20,000 bases of DNA from Rhizaria sp. SCN 62-66. Taxonomy: Eukaryota. Shown here piece after piece: positions 1 through 20,000 of the stretch. Position numbers and translations under genes: made by a program. The DNA is taken from positions 121,138 to 141,137 of the forward strand of contig MEDY01000018.1 in NCBI GenBank assembly GCA_001724265.1. The letters are read 5' to 3'. The notes beneath the pieces are model-generated. The model saw nothing but the letters and a program-made list of their open reading frames with translations, made no database searches and was not told where the DNA came from. The first letter of the stretch is position 1. The number at the start of each line of letters is the position of its first letter.

Positions 1-838
1 GCGTCGAGAAGGTCCGTCTCTGCCCCTCCCCACCACTGTCCCTCTCTGTACATATCTCCCTCATAACACGCTCAATATCACGTACCTTTTATTTTCTTGT
101 GAGTCGCTACTATAGGTTGGCAAGGACGAGTTCGGCAATGAGTACGAGTTGTATTCGTTCAAGGGCGAGGCCAAGCCGCGTCGCCAAGTCAACTACGCCA
201 GCACTGTCCCGGATCCGTCAACCCTGCCGCCGCTCTGGTCCGCCTGGCTGCGCAACCTGCGGCCGTATCCACCCACTGAGGCCGAGATCACGCAGTACAA
301 GGCGCGGCAGGCGGCGCTGGCGCAGCGCGTGCGCGCGCTCGAGCGGGAGGACGCGCTGATGAAGGAGCAGGAGATGGAGCTCAAGCTGCAGCGTACGTTT
401 GATAGAAACAACTATTTACCCACGAAGATGTTGATATTTTACTATAAGACTTCAATAAGATTTTAGTTATTGTATTATCTCATTGGCATACTCTTTTGTC
501 CTATCTGTGTTTGTTTCGTTCTTATATATGCAGACTTCCGCGAAGGCATGCCGACGATCGGACAGGCCTACACCAACAACAACAACAACAACAACAACAA
601 CGCGTCGCGCGCAGACTACACTGGCTACAGCCCCGCCAAGGGCAAGGGCATGGAGCCCATGACGCCCGAGGACATCCTCGCCCGCGTCAACGCCGCGCGG
701 CAGGCGGAGGCGGAGGCGGAGGCCGCGGCTAAGGCAGCGCGTACTAGTTCTACTCCAGCTCCTGCTAGTGCTGCTGCGAATACTACCGCTGGCGCTGGTG
801 CTGGCGCTGACGGCCAGTCTGGTGAGCGTAAAGAGTGA
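1..838 (+). CDS. NDUFAF2: NDUFA12-family complex I protein, most like assembly factor NDUFAF2 (mimitin); 5'-truncated by the window. Exons <1-11, 116-392, 534-838
   Basis: Spliced translation ...VEK|VGKDEFGNEYELYSFKGEAKPRRQVNY...LPPLWSAWLRNLRPYPPTEAEI matches the family pattern VGxDxxGNxY...RR...PxxWxxWL...RxxPPTxxE, followed by a charged helical tail as in NDUFAF2. Introns 12-115 (GTCCGT..TATAG) and 393-533 (GTACGT..TGCAG) keep frame. Stop is TGA 836-838. NDUFAF2 versus NDUFA12 is my judgement. Confidence 0.75.
575..601 (+). repeat. (AAC)9 microsatellite encoding poly-Asn
   Basis: Nine perfect AAC units inside the last exon of the NDUFAF2-like gene. Confidence 0.95.
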
Positions 839-1594
839 GTTCCAAGCGTTACACTATTGATGTGAGCTCTCTTGTGGCGACTTTTAACGAGCTGATCACT
901 AAAACAAAGAGTTTGAGTCGCAGGTGACTTGAAGGAAACGAATTGAAAAGTTCAACTTAAAGAACCTAAATCTTCTCTCCGTATTATATTGTTCGATGGC
1001 CACGGATTTTGCGTAATACAAAGTAACATAGCTGCAACTTTCTAAAAACCTATTCCTCTGTTTTCTGCTTGGCGACTGTGAGCATCGAGCTCTTTGCGTC
1101 TGCCACGGTGGCAACAACAAACTCCTTGGACACGAAAATAAAACCACAGAATTCTTTAACAAAGAAATCGTCAACTGATTTTTTGTCGGGTGCAAATTTT
1201 ATCCGAAATAAGTATCTTGCGGACTATATTGGTTATATCTTCATCACACAGTATCCTGAAGTGATTCAAGTCGTTGAAGTTTGGATACCACAACAGCAAA
1301 TTCCGGTAAAACTTCAAGTCGCAACTTGCTCTAATCCGACTAGATTAACGGCGGCAGTTTGTTATGCAATACCAGACTTACTCATATGCAAAATGCCACT
1401 GTTTTACACGCATCGCCCCACAGACAAGTCCTCAACAAGTCCCTGCAACTTCGTCTCTTCGAAGTGCACCCTTCCACAGACCGCATCAGCTCTGTGTATC
1501 TCGCTTACTCGCGGCAAACCAATAAATCTACGCTACACGCAGTAGCCTGTAGGTTTGTCCTTGGTTTCTGCGTGCGTTTTCTCTGTACCCGTGC

Positions 1595-5500: not shown

Positions 5501-8500
5501 CTAAACGCACAGTGATCGCAAAAACTGCAACGAGTAACAGCGCGGCCGCGGCCAGCCAAAACTCCCACCGTCGCAGCCCTTGCATCGACATAAGTAGTCT
5601 CAACACCGAGTGCCCGTGCGCTGCCCCACTCTTCATTGCTCCTCTCTCAACCACCAGCAATAAAACAGATGCAAGTGCTCACACTCTTGCGAGTAGCACC
5701 CGGCACATTCCGTACCCACGCGGCAGCAATGTAAGCGGTCTGCCCGCGAGTGTTAGTACATTTGGCAGCGTTCCAGGACTAATGTTCCCCGTTGTGGACG
5801 GCGAGTACACGCATCATAGCACTGCGTACAGGCTGGCTAAGGCTCGCGCTGTAACTGCAGTGAGCGTTACGCTGCCGGATAACGCCGTCAATGTAGCGAC
5901 TAGAATTGCGAGCACTGGCAGCTGCAGCAACGGCGAAAACTCAAACAGTTGTGACAGCCAGAATTACAACGCCAGTGTAAGTGACGAAGACAATGAGAGT
6001 GATCAAAAATCAACACAAGCAACAAAGCCAGCTCATCAGCACTCGGAACAGCAACAGCAGCAACACTAGCTCCCTAAGGCTTCTGCTATCGCTCGATCTC
6101 TTGCATCACCGTCACCTGTGCAACGCAACGCTCTCTTGGGTGATCTCGCAAAGCAAGGCTTCTTTGACTTGTCTTTGCTACCAACGCAATTGCTAGGCTC
6201 ATTGGGATCTGTCACTCTGTTGTCTCCCTGCGCAGAGCATTTCTCGGTGATGTTTGCACCTGATAATGCGAGTACACGCGACGATGACTGTGTGGGTGGC
6301 CCTGCCGACTTGGAAGCCAAGACTAATGGTGATAACTTCAATGCAAATGCAAGTGAGAATGACCACCGTACTCGCGTTACAAAAGTGTGCTTGAGCGTTG
6401 ACAGCGTCGGTGGTGCAACCGAGTGCTGCTGTCCGCAGTCAGTGCGCTCGCAGTGGCGTGCAAACAGCGTGCAGCGCCCGCAGTCTGTGCTGTGCGACTG
6501 CAGCAACACGCAGCAAGAGCCATCCAGGCGCAGTCAACCGCAGCAGCAACATCACTAGCAACCGCGCAACTGTGCATGTTTTTGCTGCTACATGCATAGC
6601 AAAAAAATGACTGATACCGATGCCGGCTGCGAAAACAGGCATGTTAATGCACATGATCACTTGGACCTACGCGCGTTTAATCCCACATCTCCTTTGCACC
6701 CACAGCCCTCGCATAATCACGGCGTAATTCGCAATTTCACACGCAGCGACAAGCAGGCAGCGCCAGCTGTTGATGCGCAACTTAAAATTCCGCTCGCAGT
6801 CACCAATCGCGGCTCAACTGCATTGCACAATATCTCTATTCCAATTTCCGTCAGCAGCCATATGTCTCAGCTAGTCACACTTGCGGAAACCGCAGACGAG
6901 CTCGGCGTTGACGTCAAATCTGCATTCACTTCGTTCTTGCCACTACATGAGCACCAACAGCAGCGATGTCAGCAGCGGACGCCGCAATCAGGGCATCACG
7001 GTGCACCTATGTCCGATCGCCCTTCTGACACTTGTGACACGAGCTGTGATATGACTGATGTTGATCGCGGCGCAGCAGCAGGTGTTTCAGGCGGCACTCG
7101 TTCAAAGCAAGCGCAGCTGCAACAACAGCTGCAACAGCAACGTAAGAGTAGCAATGTTCATAAGCACGTCTACTTTAATACGAGTAACGCTTGCAACACG
7201 GATATTCCGATTGTTGAGTCTCACACGAGCTCCATTGCGACTTCAAACGCTGTTAATATCAATACTGGCTCCAGCGGGACCTCTCCCAGCATTGTTGCGC
7301 AGGCAAAGGCAGAGGCCTGGGCGGACCTCGCTCATGTTAAGCTTGGACAGCGTCACCGTCGCTATGGAGATAACGCCACGCAGATTTCAATGCTGACACA
7401 GCTTCTGCTATCTTCTCCAACAGCAACCTCAAGCACTATCAGTCATGCTAACAGCGCCAATACAAGTGCCAAGACTGGTGTTGGCGATTGTGGCAGCGAC
7501 AGTGAAAATGTCACTAAAAACTCCGCTGCGCCAGGTTGGCAGTGCGATCAAAGTACGCCTCCAGGCCTTAACTTCAGCGATACCCACCGGTTCCCGCGCC
7601 CGCCGCCTTGCTTTGTTCCCGGTTGCCGCAATACCTGTCGCATTTTGCACTTGCGCCGCGGCAGTATGTTTGAGGCAACTGACGCTGCGCATAGTGATAT
7701 TGCAGTTATTGAGGTTAAAATTCGCCCTGCACTCTACCATCGACTGCGGTCGTTTCTTCGCTGTCTCAAGCCCGGCACCAGGATTCTCACTTACGAGGAC
7801 CTCAGTGATATTTTCACTGGCTGCGTTCATGAGAGCGACCGTGAGAACGAAGAAAACCAAGTCAGGGCGTATGCGGTTAAGCTCTATCTAAACCACTTGC
7901 ACCGGCTGAAGGAGGCGCTTACTTCTGGTATGGGTGGATTTGTAATTGACTCAGCCTACAGTGGCGCTCCCATGGCGAATACTCTTAGCTTAAGCAAGGA
8001 GACGTACGAGAAGACCCTTGAAGCCGCTCTTAGTACCCTTCTTTATTATCAGCAAGGATCTGCTAAGACTCACACCAACGCTCACTTTGATCGCAGTCAT
8101 TCACGGGCTGTTCGCAATCAGTCTGCGTTTGCTGCGGCCATGTGGTTGCGTCGCGCGCTGGGTCAATCTTTGTATCTCGCGAATCGTCGTTTTCACAGCA
8201 ACATTGCAGCAAACACGCTTCAATCTCAGGCAAATTACATCGGCATTAAAAGCAGCGCCATTACTGACGGTGCTATTATTGTGTGCCGCTGGGCTGCGCT
8301 AGCCCCGCTTTTACATCTTCATTCGCTTGTGCGTTTGCCTTCACTATCACTCGAGTTGCTTTCACATCAACAACAACAACACCAACAAGCGCTGCAGCAA
8401 AGACAGCTCCACCAAACGCAAAATCAACAACGCTTTTTAGCAAAGAAACAACAGCAAGTGATCGGTCTTAGGCAGCAACAACCGCAGTTACAGCATCGCA

Positions 8501-9645
8501 ATCTTAACAGCTGTGCTTGTGCCACTTTGCTGAACAGCAATGAGACCAGTTCGAGTCGAATTATTAATGGTAATGTGACTAACATGGCGGTTAGGGCCTC
8601 TAGCACAAAGCATACCAATACTGATCTCGTTGCCGACAAGCAGCAGTGCGTATGTGCATGTTTCTCTGCAACTACAACTCTTGCCGACTTTAGTGCTCCG
8701 TCGCGATCAGCAGACGCAGCTAATGCGTTGAATCAAACTACCGTTCCTAGTACTGGTTCCGCTGTTTATTCTGACGGCTACAGTCGGTTAGATGCTGGTA
8801 AGCACTCGTCCGCTTACGGTCAATACTTTACCATGGCAAACAGCAGTAGTAGTGACGACCAAAGTCAGAGTAGCGATCACGACTGCGCAGACAGCCGCAA
8901 CTGCAACAGTGGCTCTGGTACAAGTACTGAGTATGAGGGCGACTGCGAGCGTGCTGAGCACGAAGGTCTCCATAGCGACGAGAGCCGAGATCACGGAGAC
9001 ACCAGCGAAAGTAACACTCACAGTGAGCTTCACAGTGATTGTGAACATTTGCATCAACACAAACGTCGTGGCAAGCAACGTTCAATGACAGGCTTAAGCT
9101 CAACCTGCAGCACTTCGCGTGCTGGAAGTACTTGTTGTGCGACAAGTTCAACCGCAAGCAACGTCGTTGATAAAGGTGAATATTCCGCCTTGATGCTAAC
9201 ACCCCATATAATCAATCGCATGCCGTCACTGCAACGCGAAGAAGAACATCAACAACAGCGATCACTGCTGCAGAGCCACAGTCAGGCACAAGGGCAAATG
9301 CAGGAGCATGAGCAGCAATTGCAGCATCCGTTCTCGCATCAGCAATCTGCGCCAGTCTTCTCACTCTGCCCCAGTCCGTTTCTTGCTCCAACAGAACACG
9401 TGCGCAACATGCAGAGCGATGCGGCTAAACTTCCCACCATGCCAGGCTCGTGCTGTCTGCGCGGTGTGTCATCACCAGCAACACTGCCGCCGCCGTGCAG
9501 CCGCGGTTGTGAGCGCAATGTGCACTTCCCCCAGCCATGTGTGCGACTGCCTGCTAACCAAGGCAACGCAAATGATAGGGTGAGTACAAGTTGGGCGCAG
9601 TTTATTGGGCATAGGTTCCATTTATATGTCATGAAAGACGAGTGA
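2593..9645 (+). CDS. Large (~2207 aa) DOT1-like class I SAM-dependent methyltransferase with long low-complexity insertions and two in-frame TAG codons. Exons 2593-3914, 4043-4712, 4888-5079, 5206-9645
   Basis: Introns 3915-4042 (GTACGC..TGCAG), 4713-4887 (GTATGT..AACAG) and 5080-5205 (GTACGT..TTTAG) join four ORFs in frame (6624 nt in total). Splicing gives LLYGEV...MYDLGMGCGRLLMQ|AFVEYPTLSRVVGVELAYSRF (YGE, motif I DLGxGxG, GVEL). Further on come LRRGSMF...DIAVIE...LRCLKPGTRILTYEDL (~7640-7803) and VSTSW...FHLY at the C-terminus, as in DOT1-type folds. The last exon is open except for TAG at 6067-6069 and 6556-6558. Stop is TGA. The start codon is less certain. Confidence 0.75.
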
Positions 9646-9772: not shown

Positions 9773-9806
9773 TGCAGCTGGGACCAGGTGCAGCTGGGAC
9801 CAGGTG
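9773..9806. repeat. 16-bp perfect tandem duplication (TGCAGCTGGGACCAGG)x2
   Basis: Copies at 9773-9788 and 9789-9804, followed by TG. Confidence 0.9.
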
Positions 9807-10064
9807 GAACTCTGCTTTCAACACAACAGTCAGGAATAGAAATCCCAGCTTTCAAACCACTTTTCTTCAACACAAAAACCCCGTTGGTTTGAAAGCCGGG
9901 ATTCCTATTACTGACTCAACGACAATATCAATTTGCATGTGCTCGTAGTAAATCTTGCGAGAGACCTTACAAAGGAGTAAGAAACCACATAAGCTTACGA
10001 TTAATGGCAATTGACATGAACATGCTGACCACTAGTGACACGGGAAAGTAATCATTTTACTTAG

Positions 10065-10768: not shown

Positions 10769-12774
10769 TCACTCAAGCGGAGGCAGGTCATCCTCATCAA
10801 CATTGAGACTCTTCATGAGCTCAGCCAACGCAGCACTCGTCTGCTTGTCAGCAACCGCAGCAGACCCCTTAGCGTCAGAGGACGCAGACCCCTTAGCGGT
10901 AGAGGACGCGGCCCCCTGAGCCTTGTTAACCGTGCGCGCGCCCGCCTGCTCGCGCGCCTGCTGCTGCGCAATAACAGCGTTGGTGCGGCGCTCAATCTCG
11001 TCGGCCTCGGCCGCGGCGCGCTGCGCGAGCAGCTTCGCGGAGACGCGCTCGGTCTTGGCCGAGATGCCACAGCTCGCGCCACTCGCGCTCGCGCTCGCAG
11101 TCGCAGCGGAGCTTAAGCTTGAAGCAGGCTTGGTGTTATTGGTCGCGCTACTCGCGCTCGCGCTCGCCTGATTCGGCATCGAGTCAATCAGCTCGGCTTC
11201 AGCATCGCCACCGTCGTTATAGGCGCCCTTGCGATGGCCACTGCTGGCGCTGCAGCTGTTTGCGAGCGATGAGATGGATCCCGTGGCGTAGGGCATCGTG
11301 AGCACCAGCAGTCCCGTGGTGACGTGCCGCTGCACCTTGCACTGCGACACGACGACTTCGCGCTCAAAGTGCAGCAGCAGCGACTTGCCTTTGATGAGGC
11401 ACTGGAACCACGTGGGGTGGACGTCGACGTCGATCGCGCTCGTCTCGAGAAACTTGGGCGCCGCGATCTCGGCCACGCAGCTCAGACCGTCGGGAGAGTC
11501 CTAAAGAACGAGGAAAATGCATGCAAATGGTAGATAGTGAGAGAAAGGCGATTATGCCGACACATGAAGAGATGAAACAAAACAACGATACGAGACAATA
11601 CAAAGAGGTAGTGATCGAATAAACATGTTTCGCAATCAAACAATAATATCTGCGCAGTGCTTACCTTAAGAGTGAAGTGCATCTTGCTGGGGTTGCGCTG
11701 CGTGGGCCGCTCGCCGTCGGGTCCCTCCACAGCCTTTTGGTTCAGCTTATCATACGCTTCCTTGACTAAATCCGGCGCTGGCGCAAAGCGCTCGTTGGGC
11801 TTCTTCTTCTCTTCCTCGCGCTGGCGTTGCTGCTCAACCTCCTCGAGGTACATGGCTGCGCGGTTGGCAGGGGAGTACCGCCAGGAGTACCGGTCGATGT
11901 CTTTCTCGAGAGCCTCGAAGTCGACGCTCGCCAACTCGCCATCTGCGTCGTCGTCGTCGTCGTCACTACAGTTGCCGTTGTCGCAGTTGTTACAGACGGC
12001 AGCAGCCGTCTCCTCCTCCTGCTCCTCTTTTTCGTTGTCCTCAATGAGCTCGACAGTGGCGCCGCCAGTGTTGTCGCTCTCAGCAGCCTGAGCAGCTGCA
12101 GCAGCAGCTTTAGCCTTGGACACGCGAGCAGCCTTCTTGCTTGCTTTCTTGCTTGCCTTGTTGCTCTTAGCCTCGCGGTAAGCCTTGGCCTTCGCGAGCA
12201 AGTCAACCTTCGCCTGCTGCTGCGCGCGCTCAGCGAGCCGCTGCTCGATCGCTGCCGCGAGCTTTGCCTTGATCATCGGCAGGTGCTGCTCGGCCATCAG
12301 CCGTTCCGTCTTGGTCACGTCCTTGCCGTCGAGCTTCTGCAGGCGCGGCAGCGAGGCGATGGTAAACGCGCGGTAGTCGGGGAAGTCGGTGCAGGGGTTG
12401 CCAGTAAGATAGAGGTCATTGAAGAACAGCAGGTCCTTGAGTGCGGCGAGAGACGGGGCGAGGGCGTCGACATCGATGAAGTTGACAGTCAGGTCCAAGC
12501 GCTCGAGTTTCTCGCAGCCCTCGACGCCCTCGATAAGCTGGATGTTGTTAAGGGCGAGGTTAAGGTAGCGGAGCTCCTTGAGCTTGTTGAGGTTCTCCAG
12601 CTTGCTGATGAGGTTGTTCTGGAGGTACAAGATGCGCAGGCGACGGCAGATTTGGCCAAGGAGCTCGATCCTCTCCAGGTGCAGCTGGTGCAGAGAAAGC
12701 TCCTGCAAATCGGCCAGGAGACCGGTGTGGTGCTCGCTCTTTTTAAGGATGAGCTCCTGAGTAATGCGCGGCAT
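10769..12774 (-). CDS. DNAAF11: Dynein axonemal assembly factor 11 (LRRC6/tilB/Seahorse family), 613 aa. Exons 12774-11665 and 11500-10769
   Basis: N-terminus MPRITQELILKKSEHHTGLLADLQELSLHQLHLERIE...LYLQNNLISKLENLNKLKELRYLNLALNNI...LDLTVNFI...LYLTGNPC...LDGKDV is the characteristic LRR plus LRRcap. After intron 11664-11501 (GTAAGC..TTTAG, phase 0) comes the CS-like domain PKFLETSAIDVDVHPTWFQCLIKGKSL...LLVLTMP. The C-terminus is DDLPPLE and the stop is TGA. Confidence 0.95.
10860..10925 (-). repeat. 24-nt coding tandem repeat (~2.7 copies) in the DNAAF11 tail
   Basis: GCAGACCCCTTAGCG(TC/GT)AGAGGAC units encoding AQGAASST-AKGSASSD-AKGSA. Confidence 0.8.
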
Positions 12775-13153
12775 GACACGGGGCTGATTTAGAAGCGGGG
12801 CAAGTAATTGAGTGGAGCGATAGAGGCTTGCTGATCAACAGATAGTCTCGGTCTCTTCAAGTAAGTGGCTACTACGCAAGGCAAAGCATTTAGAAAATAA
12901 TAAAACAAAATTAAGAATAATTATAAGCATAAATCGCATTTTCACCTGGCATCGTCCTATTAACGGATCTTGTGCTGACTTATGGATAAAACACGATGGG
13001 TCATAACGGCCGACATTCAAAATGGGAACTTGCTCGATGTCAAAGCACTTGTGGTAAAAATACTATAATGTGGAGTAGCGTGAAGATATAAGTGTTTATT
13101 GAGATAAGTGTCGTAATAATAATTTGACAATTTTGAATATTAGCTAAATAATC

Positions 13154-13617: not shown

Positions 13618-15137
13618 GGGGCTGGGCCGAGGGGATGCGTGGCAGCATCGCAGGCACCGCATTGCCGCCACTCGAGCTCGCAGTAGCGTTCCCGGCGCTC
13701 GTGTTGCTAGGCTGATGCTGTTGCTGTTGTTGCTGCGACTGTGATTGTGCGCTGCTCGGGTGACTTGAGTTCGCGCCAGTGCTATTGTGAGCGGCACTGC
13801 TACTGTGCACTGCGACTGAGGCACTGGCGCCACGAGGGGGGCGGATCCCGGACCGCGCGCTCGGGCTCACAGCACCAGCACTCGCACTGGCACTGGCATT
13901 CGCACCCACAGCAGCGTTGCTACGCCGGCTGCTCGCCGCTGCAGGCGCCGCCGACTGCTGCTGCTTCTGCTGCGGCTTACTGTAGCTGTTCGTGGCGCCG
14001 TCGTCGTTGCTGTTGTCGATAGCCGCAGCAGTATCGTCGTCACCGTCTTCCTCCGGCACGGCGGCTGTGTTGCCCGCGTGGCTGCCGCGCGCGGCGTTTG
14101 CACTCGAGCTGTTGCTGCTAACTGTGCCAGAAGTGGTGCAGTTCGCGGCGGCATCGTAGCTGCCCGTCTCCTTGACGCGGTCGATGATGAACTGCAGCTT
14201 CCCTTTCATGCCCTCCTCGACCTTGCGGCGCAGCGCCTCGCTCTGCTTCACCTTGCCCTCCAGCGCCGCGATCTCACCGTCCTTCTTGTGCAGCTGCTCC
14301 GTCAGCGACGCCGCGACGAGCGTCTTCTCCGCGGTCGCCACATGCAGCTGCTGAGTCAGCAGAGCCAGCCGGGTGTCCTTGTCCTTGTTCGACGCGCCAG
14401 GGCCGAACACATCGTTGCTGGCGTCGCCGCCGCCGCCGCGCGCGTTGCCGCCGCCGCCGCCGCCGCTGCCGTGGGCACCGGCGCCGGCACCACGGCCGTT
14501 GAGCCGCCGCTCCAGCGTCTGCAGACGCGATTTGGTCGACTCGAGCTCCAGCTTGGCCACATGCGCCGCCGCGGTGAGCTCCTTGACCTTGTCATTTGCC
14601 GCCTTGCCCTGTGCCCTGACGCGCTCCAGCTCCTTCTGCGCCTCCGACAGCGACAGAGACGCCGACTCACGGTCCCAGGCCACTGCGACGGCCTCAAGCC
14701 CGGCCGCCAGCTTCTGCTTCAGCGCCGCGGCCTCGGCCTGCGCGGCCACCGCCGCCGCAGCGGCCTCGGCGGCCTCGGCCTGCGACGCCTTGAGCTGCTG
14801 GGTGACCGCGAGCAGGTCCGCGGCCGTCTTCTTCGCGCTGCGCACGGTCTCGCTGGTGATAAGCTTGGCCGCCTCGGCGAGCTTCTCCTTGAGCGCGGCG
14901 ATCACGCTCTCGTCGCCGTCGCTCTTGGCCAGCAAAACCTTGATCTTGCCGCGCAAGTCCGACGCCTGCGTCTCGACCACTGTGAGCCGCGCGCGCGCCG
15001 CCTTGGCTTTCTCCTTGGCGGAGGCCGCGTCGGCGGTCGCGGCGTCGAGCGCGGCGCTGAGGGCCGCCACGTCGTTGGCGTTGCGGCGGGTCGCCACTGT
15101 GCTCGCGCTTTGCTGCTGCTGCTGCTGGGTGATGGCC

Positions 15138-15174
<37 letters not shown>

Positions 15175-18100
15175 CAGAGCTAGTGTTGTTGCTATTGTTC
15201 ACGGCGCTCGTGCGAGCAGCGTACTTGCTCGCGTAGCTTGTGTTGCCGTCGTCGTCCTCGTCGTCGTCCTCGTTGCTGCCAACTTCACCGTCGTCATCGT
15301 TCACGTTGTTGTCACTGTCGCCGTTGTCAGGCTGCTGCTGCTGCTGCTGCTGCTGCTCGGAAGCCGCAGCCGCAGCCGCGGCCGCCGCAGCCGCAGCGGT
15401 CGCGGCCGCCTGCCTGGCCGCGGCGGCCTCCGCGGTGACCACGTCCAGCCGGTCCTGCAGCTCCTTGACCTTGCCCTTGGCGATGACCAGCGCCTCGGAC
15501 CGTGAGCGCCATTTGGTGTTGTTGGGGTCGGCGACGAGCGCGTCGACCAGGGCGTCGTCGCCGATCTCGCGGGCCAGCAGCGCGCGCAGCTTCGCGACCT
15601 CCTTGGCGGCCGTGCTCTGCGCCGTCAGAAGGCGCGACGTGCGCGACAGCTCAGCGTTGTACCGCTTCTGCGATGCGAAAAATGTAACATAAACAAACAG
15701 AATCAAAGCCATATAAATTGGGTGTAAGACAATACTTCGCAAAAGCATAATGTTTAAGTCGTATCCACACTATAACAGAATTCAAGTCAAGTAAATCAGG
15801 TATATGCATGTGACTCAAAATGTCTTGTTCTAGTGATGTCCGTACCTTCCAAAGCTCAGCATTGCTCTCGACCGCGGCCGCCGCGTCCTCGGCCTCCCCG
15901 GGCAGCAGCAAGGCCGCGGCCTTCTTGACCGGCTTCCCGCCGTTGACCGCGCTGCCGCCGCCGCCGCCGCTGAACTCGATCCCACGCGCCTGCAGCTCCG
16001 CCTCGGCGGCCTCCGCGCGGACCCGGCTCTGCTCCTCGGCCTTGCGCGCGGCCTCCTCGGCTTTGCGGGCGCGCGACGTGGCAGCGCGCTCCGTCGCCAG
16101 CAGACGGCCCATCTCGCGGTTCTGCTTCATGAGAGATTTCTGCAGCTCGTACTCCGGCTGCGCGCGCAGCGCGTCGATGTCGGCCTGCAGAAATAGAAAT
16201 GAAGGAAGCATACAAAATAATGAGAATTTAGGGCAAAAATATCGAATATTAATTTTATATGCCTATTTTTAATTGAATAATAAAAGTTCATGCGGAAATG
16301 TGAGGATATGATAGATATATGCTCGTTTTAGTGATATATATGTCGCCCCCGCGTACCTGCATGGCGACCACGGCGTCGGCGAGCTCCGCGACTTCCTCCG
16401 TGCGCGTCTCGAGCGCCTGCTCCACCGCGGCCTTCTCCTCCTGCAGCGTCAGGATCTGCGTCGCCTGCGCCAGCAGTAGCTCGGTGTCCTCAACCGACCG
16501 CGCCGCTGCAACAGGCGCGGCCACCGCGGCTGGGGCTGAGGCTGGTTCGTGGTGCGCGCCGGCGGCAGCGCTCAGGGACGGAGACAGCGCGGCGATCGCG
16601 GTGACTTTGCCGCCCGCGGCTGGCTTGCTCGCAGCAGCGGGCGCTGCAGGCTTCTTGCCCGGGAGGCGCGGCTTAACTTTCGACGGGTCGGCGGCCTCGC
16701 TGCCCACGGTCACGGCGGGCGCAGCGGCGTTGCCACCCTCTACGGCGCTGGTCGGCGGCGCCAGCGCGGCGAGCACGGTGCCGCCGTTGCTGGCGCGGAG
16801 GGCGACCCGCGCGACGACGGTCGGGGCGCCGGCGCTGGCGCCGCCGGCGGTTGCGCTAACATTAACGCACGCACTGGCGTTAGCAAGTGCTGGAGCAGCG
16901 TCGTCGTCGCTGTTGTCGTCGTCTTTGGCGCTAATGGCAGCGCTCGCGCTCGTGGCGAGCGGGCGAGAGGCAGATGACACGCGGACACGCCCATTGCCAG
17001 CAGTCGCAGCGGAGGTGGGCTTCACTGCGGCACCTGTGACACCTGTGGCACCTGTGGTGCCTGTGGCAGGACTCGTGGTGGCAGAAGCACCAGCAACGGC
17101 GGCAGTCACCGCAGGAGCGGGGACCTTTTTAGAGGCGGCGGTCCTCGCATTGGCGACAGGCGCCTTATTCTTGGCACTAGGGCTTTTCGCACGCGCACTC
17201 GCACTCGAACTTACACTGGCATTTGCATGCGCACTATCGCTGTGGCCCGCATCGACTGTGGCGTCATTGTTGCTCTTCATGACAGTATTGCTTTTGGCAG
17301 TTGCTGTTGCAGTGGTATCTGACTCAAGCTCACCGATGATGGCGTCAAGCTCAGCCATGCTCATGCCAGCGATGTCCGCGGTGTCGCCCTTAGACGCAGC
17401 GGCCGCAGCGGGCTGGGGCTCAGCAGCAGCCTTAAGTGCGGGCTTGAGCTGTGTGGCGGCAGCGGTCTTAGACGCGGCACCCTTAGACGCGGCACCCTTA
17501 GACGCAGGGGCGGGCTTGGACTGAGCAGTAGGAGCAGCATCCTTCTCCTTCGTGTGGCCATTGTTGGCGGCAGGAGCGTTCTTGCTGCTGCTCGCACTCT
17601 TGGCATGAGCGCTGCTGTCTGCGTAACCGCCATTGCTAGAGCTGTAGCCGCCGGCACTACTCGCGTAGCCACCACCATTGCTGTTATCATCATTATCGTC
17701 CTCATCATCATCATCAGCGTCGTTATCATTGTCGCCATAACCGTCGGTGTGTTTGTTGGAGCGAATGTTGTTAGACGCATTGGTGTTGTGCTGGTAAAAC
17801 TCGTCGTCCGTGGTCAAGTCATCGTCACCGTCGTTGTTATTGCTCTTGTTTTGGTTTGCATAGCCGTAACTCGGCAACTCAGCGCCGAAGTCGCCGTTGT
17901 CGTCGTCATCGTCGTCATTCGCGTCAATATCTCCGACATCACCGGCCATGTCAGCATAGCCGCGGCTTGCACTCGGGCGACCGCTGCTAGCACCAGCGTT
18001 GGCAGCTGCAGGCGCGTCTTTGTCCTTGCTGCTGTTGTTGCTGCCAACAGTCTTGCTTGAGGTAGAGGCAGCAGATGCAGTGGCGGGGGCGGCGACGGGG

Positions 18101-18788: not shown

Positions 18789-19540
18789 ATGTGTTTTTAT
18801 GGTGTGTGCTGGAGGTGCAACGGGTTTGAACTTTGCTTCGCTCACCACACCGACATCGCCACCTGCACGTCCAGCTGGCGCTGCACTGGCGTTACTCCGC
18901 GCAGTTTGACGACGAGGCCGAGTGCACCATCAACAAAGAAGTTGTCAAGCGCGGTGTTACCACGCGCCCTGGCGTCTGCGGCACCGGTTTCTTCAACGCC
19001 ACATGCAGCCACGTGGGAAAGCACTGCCCGCACTACCGACCTCACTACCTGGGCCTCCAGTCTCAGACGTCAAGGTGACCGTGCGCGTCACGCCGCTTAA
19101 CTACACCCTCGCCATCAACGCCGGCCAGGAGGCACTTGGCGCCCGTGAAATCTCGCTCAACGCCGCCGTGCTCCCTTTCTTTCCTGGCAGACCGCATCCT
19201 ATTCGGACTTTCTAACTAGGTTTTGTACGGTTACAGACTTTGTAACTGTGTCCTCCACCGTCAAAATGGGCTCTCTCTGTGACGCCACATGCGCCAACGG
19301 CGGCACCTGCGACAATAAGCACCCCGCAAACGCCGTGCAATGTAAGCCCGGCCACAAGGACGAGGACTGCGGTTCTCATTTCGCCAACCTGTCTCGTGCT
19401 CCCAAGCCCCTTATCCGCGCTTGCTTTCCTAGGCAAGGCTATGGAGGCTGAAGAGTTCGTGCTTTGGTTGACGACGACCAAGGCTGATCAGTGGCTACTC
19501 CGTGGTCATCTACTGCGAGGTGCTTCAGCACCGGCATGAT
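18789..19540 (+). pseudogene. Probable degenerate fragment of a Cys-rich, EGF-like extracellular protein gene
   Basis: GC-rich, C-ending codon bias. Protein-like text switches frame near 18900 and 19018 (…ATCTSSWRCTGVTP / QFDDEAECTINKEVVKRGVTTRPGVCGTGFFNATCSHVG / KALPALPTSLPGPPVSDVKVTVRVTPLNYTL). After a TTCTAAC..TTACAG acceptor (19236) comes CDATCANGGTCD...QCKPGHKDEDC, an EGF-like motif lacking one Cys. No clear start codon or GT donor. Confidence 0.5.
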
Positions 19541-19689
19541 GGCCCACTCCAACACTGACTCCGATACTATTAATACTACAAAGTACTCGAAGTACGAATT
19601 TTCTTCATGACTCACAGGTTCCACTCACTTTATTAATCAGGAATCACTACTAATAACGTTAATTTCACCGTCACAATGTTTTATGAATG

Positions 19690-19848
19690 GGCAGGTGGAA
19701 TTAGCGGACGATTCGACGACAAATGATTGACAGCAAGCAGGCTTCGCCCTGCTTTGTAGTCATCAATACATGCTTCCTCAGCTGCAACTAGCGGATGAGA
19801 CCAGAGTGTGTAAGTCGTCAAGGTTGGGTTCGACTCCCAGCGCTGCCA
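19690..19848 (+). ncRNA. Candidate RNA polymerase III tRNA-like structured RNA (~160-170 nt), identity unknown
   Basis: A-box-like TGGAATTAGCGG (19696-19707) and B box GGTTCGACTCC (19827-19837). Stems: GGCAG/CTGCC, GAAT/ATTC, GACGAC/GTCGTC, and TTGGG-TTCGACT-CCCAG. There are two long internal hairpins and a T5 run downstream. Confidence 0.65.
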
Positions 19849-19857
19849 GCATCTCTC

Positions 19858-19862
19858 TTTTT
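19858..19862 (+). terminator. Putative Pol III terminator (T5)
   Basis: TTTTT begins 10 nt after the 3' end of the acceptor-like stem of the candidate RNA. Confidence 0.5.
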
Positions 19863-20000
19863 GCTTGACTTAATACTACTGCTACTGGTAATTCGGCCAT
19901 CGCTGGTGCCCTGAGGCACATCATCGCAAGAATCCCAAGATATGTCGCACTCGTGTTGGATCAGTGTGAGCGTGATGGCTTGGCTGCGACGATTGAGCAA

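Follow-up and report, generated by a model that had tools for sequence, protein, structure and literature searches.

A candidate non-decoding structured RNA gene of tRNA shape in the genome of an uncultured flagellate protist

Anatomy of the element

The 20-kb window that we have analyzed (20,000 nucleotides of contig MEDY01000018.1, positions 121,138 to 141,137, deposited under the name Rhizaria sp. SCN 62-66; coordinates below are those of the window) carries, besides a eukaryotic gene described further down, a tRNA-shaped element at 19690-19862 on the plus strand. In its DNA one can read an acceptor-like stem, a D-like arm whose loop contains GG, a T arm of canonical form with its B box, and a terminal run of five T residues (Table 1). 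The place of the anticodon arm is taken by a forked arm of 105 nt (19715-19819), in which a 6-bp Watson-Crick stem bears two hairpins and which folds well on the plus strand only. The stems and the T run had been listed in an earlier reading of the sequence (hereafter the original prediction); all of them could be located at the positions listed there, and the minimum free energy (MFE) structure given by RNAfold contains the whole layout.

This structure has 55 base pairs, seven of them G.U. The bases G19695 and T19696, opposite G19842 and C19841, are unpaired, so that the acceptor-like stem consists of five clean pairs. The D-like stem gains a further pair (U19702.G19710) in the RNAfold structure, and its A-U, A-U, U-A and U.G pairs form despite bases that depart from the tRNA consensus. 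Pair probabilities are high in the T arm and amount to 0.75-0.98 in the basal and middle stems of hairpin 2, the base of which is a 9-bp helix. The structure of hairpin 1 is not settled: the sampled probabilities were 0.61 and 0.00 for its apical pairs and 0.04-0.05 for the basal register that was tested.

As for the signals expected of a gene of the RNA polymerase III (Pol III) type, the B box has a single match in the window, 0.21 being expected. There is no run of four T residues (T4) within 19690-19857, which is not significant (3477 of 5000 shuffled sequences were likewise free of T4). The short A/T-rich stretch upstream of the element may be an upstream Pol III element, a role inferred only from its sequence.

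Table 1. Positions of the features of the tRNA-shaped element within the window.
Feature	Position	Strand	Description	Basis or pair probability
TATA-like, A/T-rich TTAATTT	19659-19665	+	About 25-31 nt 5' of the first paired base	Sequence
RNA body	19690-19848	+	Spans 159 nt; begins with the first acceptor-like base and ends with the discriminator-like A	RNAfold MFE
Acceptor-like stem, 5' strand	19690-19694	+	GGCAG, partner of 19843-19847	0.95-1.0
D-like arm	19698-19714	+	GAAT (19698-19701)/ATTC (19711-19714), loop AGCGGAC with GG doublet	About 0.73
Stem in the anticodon-stem place, 5' strand	19715-19720	+	GACGAC, perfect 6 bp with 19814-19819	0.98-0.99
Hairpin 1	19723-19765	+	Apical stem AAGCAGG/CCTGCTT, loop CTTCGC; register of the basal stem ambiguous	
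Hairpin 2	19767-19812	+	TACATGCTT/GAGTGTGTA (3 G.U pairs), CTCA/TGAG, GCTG/TAGC	
Stem in the anticodon-stem place, 3' strand	19814-19819	+	GTCGTC	RNAfold
T arm	19824-19840	+	TTGGG-TTCGACT-CCCAG, perfect; exact B box GGTTCGACTCC at 19827-19837	
Acceptor-like stem, 3' strand	19843-19847	+	CTGCC, followed by A19848, unpaired, in the discriminator position	
T5 run, likely Pol III terminator	19858-19862	+	10 nt past the discriminator-like A	

Strength of the tRNA frame and of the fold

The frame under test has an exact B box inside a T stem of 5 bp, an acceptor closed over 5 bp by a strand that lies 40-200 nt upstream, and a T4 run at a distance of up to 40 nt; it occurs once in the real window. 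The 3000 block-shuffled windows contained 558 B boxes, of which 20 had the T stem, 16 also the closure and only one the T run as well. The tRNA frame is far from chance and is a stronger signal than the folding energy, and the claim of the original prediction that this is a tRNA-shaped gene of the Pol III type is borne out.

The plus strand of 19690-19850 has an MFE of -60.0 kcal/mol (z -2.91), and only one of 200 shuffled sequences folded as well; on the minus strand of the same stretch z is -0.80 and 43 of 200 shuffles were as good. The difference is also seen in the forked arm by itself (19715-19819), with z -3.98 and 0 of 200 shuffles for the plus strand against z -1.70 and 12 of 200 for the minus strand. 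A fold specific to the plus strand and better than shuffled sequence, as had been predicted, is what these values indicate. A 105-nt window that overlaps the element from upstream (19601-19705, plus strand) also beats its shuffles (z -3.84, from 20 shuffles), with an MFE of just -21.7 kcal/mol.

Comparison with tRNAs and other RNA families

Several features of canonical tRNAs are present, namely the GG of the D loop and a T arm with G53-C61, T54, psi55, C56 and A58. Others are not. The acceptor stem should have 7 bp and has five Watson-Crick pairs followed by the mismatches G6.G67 and U7.C66. In the tRNA core U8 is nearly universal and G10, Y11-R24 and R15-Y48 are the consensus; in the register given by ARAGORN the element has G8, A10, A11-U24 and G15 with G48. 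With its default settings ARAGORN found no tRNA or transfer-messenger RNA (tmRNA) gene in the 20-kb window, and there was no match to the tRNA model of Rfam. The element is not a canonical tRNA, in agreement with the original prediction.

Searches against the remaining Rfam families were equally poor in results. The whole window gave no match at gathering scores and the 351 nt of 19600-19950 none at E<=10. When sub-stretches of 165 nt and 66 nt were searched, the plus-strand matches were confined to the T arm region, plus one chance match on the minus strand. The best of these weak alignments was to mascRNA/menRNA (10.9 bits, E 5.6, against a gathering score of 42.5) and is limited to the T arm and the 3' strand of the acceptor; tmRNA followed with 7.8 bits (gathering score 47) and permuted tmRNA with 5.9 bits. 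The Vault, Y RNA, signal recognition particle (SRP) and tRNA models gave no match, even on the short sub-stretches, and the suggestion of a Y-like RNA in the original prediction finds no support there. Inspection of the insert by eye revealed nothing convincing in the way of C/D or H/ACA boxes, an SRP S-domain or a telomerase template, nor was there an Rfam match of any of these kinds.

The element shares features with several known systems and differs from each of them. Like tmRNA (RF00023), it has an acceptor and T arm frame in which a long insert replaces the anticodon arm, and it carries the motif GATTCGAC in the 5' portion and GGGTTCGACTCCC within the T arm. Unlike tmRNA, only the 15 nt of the T arm align, the context is that of a eukaryotic nucleus, and there is a C3-G70 pair where the alanine identity pair G3.U70 would be expected. 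No credible tag frame was found, and ARAGORN called a tmRNA only at thresholds of 70%, in a permuted form spanning 425 nt. The elements of the mascRNA/MEN-beta type (RF01684) are likewise non-decoding tRNA mimics, with an acceptor/T minihelix that is a putative substrate of RNase P and RNase Z; they differ in being about 60 nt long, with a short anticodon-like arm, and in lying at the 3' end of long RNA polymerase II (Pol II) RNAs, whereas our element has a T5 terminator of its own and the 105-nt forked arm. Vault RNAs (RF00006) share a box-B-type internal promoter, paired termini, a variable structured center, a similar order of length and a U-run end; the element differs in keeping complete D and T arms and in its lack of a match to the Rfam model of the family.

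On a separate note, a looser pattern (GATTCGAC...GGGTTCGACTCCC) was found at six loci in viral contigs, which proved to be unrelated tRNA neighborhoods and a true phage tmRNA. The latter is a full tmRNA gene on a viral contig of 181 kb (662-1099, minus strand; Rfam 65 bits, E 1.5e-23), with the same sequence in a second contig, and was missed by ARAGORN at default settings.

Copies, relatives and transcripts

The element looks single-copy. A blastn-short search of the window returned the element itself only, and we have scanned larger collections with the pattern TTAGCGG-N4-TTCGAC-N94-124-GGTTCGANNCC. In metagenome contigs it matched two loci, one of them the identical same locus (on a contig of 1789 bp) and the other a chance match that lacks a tRNA-like fold; in prokaryote genomes there was one chance match, within a bacterial reading frame; in viral contigs there was none, and exact searches with an 18-mer and a 22-mer taken from the element halves gave 0 and 0. 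Since these scans accept exact pattern matches only, they would overlook relatives that have diverged. A DNA contig of independent origin, assembled in a study of 2025, covers 19074-19931; it shows no difference and is unbroken at both ends of the element. The DNA of the window is present in bioreactor, wastewater and activated-sludge runs from several studies, dated from 2015 to 2025.

Four sequencing runs were compared, as contigs, from which strand, ends, joints and variants cannot be read. A polyA metatranscriptome contributed a single contig of 317 nt (19505-19821) at a depth of about 3, which begins 185 nt upstream of the element and stops inside it. Two runs labeled as cDNA are probably DNA.

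Genomic setting

The window is eukaryotic. It carries the gene for dynein axonemal assembly factor 11 on the minus strand, with the CS and LRR domains in adjacent frames (10769-11500 and 11482-12834). The gene is split over these overlapping frames, of which 11482-12834 holds the LRR part and 10769-11500 the latter half of the CS domain; a frameshift, a short intron or an error in the assembly may be responsible. The LRR part is matched by 577 proteins at E<=1e-10; its closest relative other than itself has 80% identity over 40% of the query, and the best matches from named organisms are those of oomycetes, Cafeteria and ciliates with 53-61%. Genes lie on the plus strand as far as 9645, on the minus strand between 10769 and 18348, and once more on the plus strand past the element. 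Nine of the 11 long open reading frames (ORFs) of the window had no Pfam match. One ORF of 1017 aa (6592-9645, plus strand) matched neither Pfam nor PHROG and has no relative except itself among 5.8 billion proteins; it is an orphan gene, from a lineage not yet sampled.

Two other regions of the window are peculiar in their own right. A near-perfect inverted-repeat hairpin of 31 bp (9826-9915, with 9775-9806) lies between converging gene blocks and is directly preceded by two tandem copies of the 16-mer GCAGCTGGGACCAGGT. The minus strand of 9780-9930 folds with -58.2 kcal/mol (z -5.72, 0 of 200 shuffles). Possible explanations for the hairpin are a foldback element, the precursor of a small RNA and a terminator. 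The region 14000-17000 has a G+C content of 65-69%, compared with about 48-55% elsewhere in the window, and its minus-strand ORFs encode long low-complexity proteins rich in Ala, Ser, Thr and Asp. A 105-nt window within it (16751-16855) reaches z -6.07 on the minus strand, probably due to repeats.

Discussion

Our preferred interpretation, to which we would give a probability of about 0.45, that is, somewhat below even odds, is that the element is a single-copy tRNA-derived gene of Pol III type 2 in the nucleus of an uncultured flagellate protist, and that its product would be a structured RNA of about 160 nt that does not decode. TFIIIC would bind to the B box and to the D region, which resembles an A box, and Pol III would start near 19690 and stop at the T5 run. 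Docking of the D loop with the T loop would give the RNA a tRNA-like L shape, and the acceptor/T minihelix may direct end trimming by RNase P and RNase Z and the addition of CCA, by which the RNA would be stabilized. It would stay uncharged and read no codons. The forked arm would be the working part, most likely a platform for protein binding, comparable in this respect to the variable central domains of vault and Y RNAs. We favor a maintained non-decoding RNA over a decaying pseudogene because the helices pair despite their non-consensus bases; stems that stay intact at such bases would be the pattern expected from selection on structure and not from random decay.

A number of observations weigh against this interpretation. 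The scans of contigs, prokaryotes and viruses gave neither homologue nor paralogue, and hence no evidence at all of covariation or conservation. No discrete small transcript is in evidence either, since the polyA contig is the sole support from an RNA library and could come from a Pol II transcript of greater length or from carried-over DNA. Good folds are also found elsewhere in the window: among 796 background windows of 105 nt, 2.4% had z<-3 and 0.6% z<-4 (with just 20 shuffles per window), and because the background reaches such scores the folding energy of the element is notable, not unique, and is insufficient as proof of function. The element matches what we take to be the A-box consensus only partially, in either register, and with its five clean acceptor pairs RNAfold prefers an alternative to the 7-bp acceptor stem, in which a 5-bp acceptor is combined with a 6-bp T stem. 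The function ascribed above to the forked arm is pure inference.

The competing explanation that we take most seriously, although we consider it unlikely, is a dead tRNA gene, possibly a tRNA-Tyr, that received an insertion of 88 nt in the anticodon loop and then drifted; its RNA would be functionless, while TFIIIC binding or transcription may persist. The core positions that are off (G8, A10, A11-U24 and G15/G48) and the two acceptor mismatches would be explained in this way, and so would the lack of a homologue and of a proven transcript. What speaks for a maintained RNA is that every helix pairs, the non-consensus D stem included, and that T arm and terminator are intact, because neutral drift should hit stems as often as loops. 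In addition, the insert folds unusually well, on the plus strand only, and shows neither terminal inverted repeats nor a clear target duplication. The same 88 nt (19721-19808) could alternatively be an intron at the non-canonical position 32/33, removed by an unusual endonuclease to give a working tRNA-Tyr(GUA) of 71 nt, which seems improbable to us. The element does look like an intron-bearing nuclear pre-tRNA in that its acceptor, D and T arms fold independently, the entire insert lies within the anticodon loop and extends its stem, the would-be anticodon is paired with the insert, as in the anticodon-intron pairing of pre-tRNAs, and a T-run terminator follows. The original prediction had denied it a U33 and a proper anticodon loop; this is correct for an intron at 37/38, which leaves an A at position 33, and fails for a cut at 32/33, the sole workable one, after which the final bases of hairpin 2 (TGTA) supply U33 and the GUA anticodon of a C-U-GUA-A-G loop with a purine at 37. 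A check with ARAGORN allowing introns had been proposed there; at thresholds of 95% or lower the program does call a tRNA-Tyr(GUA) with the insert between C32 and U33, and once the 88 nt are removed by a script it calls tRNA-Tyr(GTA) at default thresholds. The setting of 95% is noisy, though, with 54 calls in 60 shuffled 20-kb windows (about 0.9 each), 11 of them with an intron that was absent or <=133 nt, and one of the two calls in the real window has an absurd intron of 2810 nt. The Tyr-type loop is weak evidence because, with a free choice of the cut, two of the eight possible 7-nt loops have U33 and R37. The identity features fit badly as well: the tRNA-Tyr of eukaryotes requires C1-G72, whereas either ARAGORN register of the element shows G1-C72, with A73 in place, and G8, the two acceptor mismatches and the failure of default ARAGORN and of the Rfam tRNA model to find it add to the discrepancy. 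Nor is there a bulge-helix-bulge at the proposed splice sites: among the best 25 of 238 relaxed motifs found by a script none is anchored at 19720/21 and 19808/09, the 3' site falls inside the 9-bp base helix of hairpin 2, and the sole relaxed motif on the long stem, with three of four central pairs, would give the loop AAUGUAA, devoid of U33. None of the four sequencing runs contained a spliced joint, a weak negative given that only assembled contigs were compared. Precedents for such an intron are the ectopic nuclear tRNA introns described for Cyanidioschyzon merolae and nucleomorphs, some of them without the bulge-helix-bulge motif (PMC3728597, PMC4090602). The introns of eukaryotic tRNAs are described there as 6-133 nt long, a range that includes the 88-nt insert, and as lying nearly always at 37/38 (PMC4090602, PMC3728597), and insertions at odd positions of eukaryotic tRNA genes are, according to a review, mostly considered pseudogenes (PMC4090602), a view that favors the dead gene.

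The remaining explanations appear less probable still. The element might be a true vault RNA, which would partner TEP1 and the major vault protein (MVP) in this protist, and its general design would fit, with type 2 promoter boxes inside the gene, 5' and 3' ends that pair, a middle that is structured and variable, and a U tail. The vault resemblance in the original prediction was a likeness in motifs (A box, TTCGAC, B box, GCGCT and U tail) and found no support in the comparison with Rfam, as RF00006 had no match at E<=10 on either 351 nt or 165 nt. The B box is exact, the T5 run is there and the A box is partial, features of a kind that all tRNA-type genes share; the cloverleaf with complete D and T arms is more tRNA-like than what we take to be the paired-ends design of vault RNAs; nothing links the element to TEP1 or MVP, and no MVP- or TROVE-like protein is encoded among the window's 11 long ORFs. 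On the other hand, reviewed vault RNAs have little in common beyond box A and box B (PMC7058938), and because their variable central domain defeats homology searches the Rfam negative lowers the chance of membership without excluding it. MVP itself is reported to occur widely among eukaryotes, with oomycetes, ciliates and kinetoplastids as examples (PMC3762200), and from a protist, Trypanosoma brucei, a vault RNA is known (PMC12547018). We find it harder yet to believe in a tRNA-like processing element within a Pol II transcript, similar to mascRNA at the end of MALAT1, where a cut by RNase P or RNase Z would define an mRNA end or free a small RNA. The only contig from an RNA library is polyA-selected and enters the element from upstream, mascRNA/menRNA gives the best of the weak Rfam alignments of the 3' part, and open frames lie close by on the same strand (upstream to about 19539, downstream from about 19869 or 19942). 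Against this stand the T5 run and the B box, which indicate Pol III, the low depth of a contig that is devoid of strand or end information and possibly DNA carry-over, an alignment score far under the gathering score and the neighboring small frames, none of whose eight translations rose above the Pfam cut-off. Least probable of all, with a very small chance, is a tRNA-derived short interspersed element (SINE) or other mobile element, an option raised by the original prediction. The promoter head is tRNA-like, and a 10-nt direct repeat (TTAATACTAC, at 19570 and 19870) flanks the element. The upstream copy of this repeat is, however, 110 nt away from the tRNA-like 5' end and not adjacent, and a repeated 10-mer in 800 bases is, by estimate, close to chance expectation. 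The terminator directly follows the closed acceptor stem, in the style of a tRNA gene, with no SINE-like body and tail; there is one copy in 20 kb, the metagenome scan yielded the same locus only, and a multi-copy repeat is disfavored because the independent DNA contig runs unbroken across both ends of the element.

Returning to the preferred interpretation, a maintained non-decoding RNA, a tentative extension that we regard as possible but rather doubtful is that the element represents a class of Pol III RNAs that are built on a tRNA scaffold and so far undescribed, and is its first member, in a protist lineage that has barely been sampled. In such RNAs the L-shaped body would recruit the machinery that processes and stabilizes tRNA ends, and the forked two-hairpin arm, taking the place of the anticodon arm, would carry the function, for example as the RNA subunit of a ribonucleoprotein, be it of the TROVE type (TEP1 or Ro) or another. 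In a bold variant of the intron explanation it would be a nuclear tRNA with a long intron at 32/33, spliced without a bulge-helix-bulge, the first such case beyond red algae and nucleomorphs.

Small Pol III RNAs have hardly been explored in protists, and RNAs of the vault and Y types outside animals are described for very few species (PMC7058938). In this landscape the element is a well-formed orphan candidate, the value of which lies in providing a precise and cheap target for RNA detection. If the insert were spliced, the known range of intron positions in eukaryotic tRNAs and the acceptance of the splicing endonuclease would be wider. If the element is a stable tRNA mimic with a purpose-built arm, it would represent another route by which tRNA genes are put to new use as sources of regulatory or structural RNAs.

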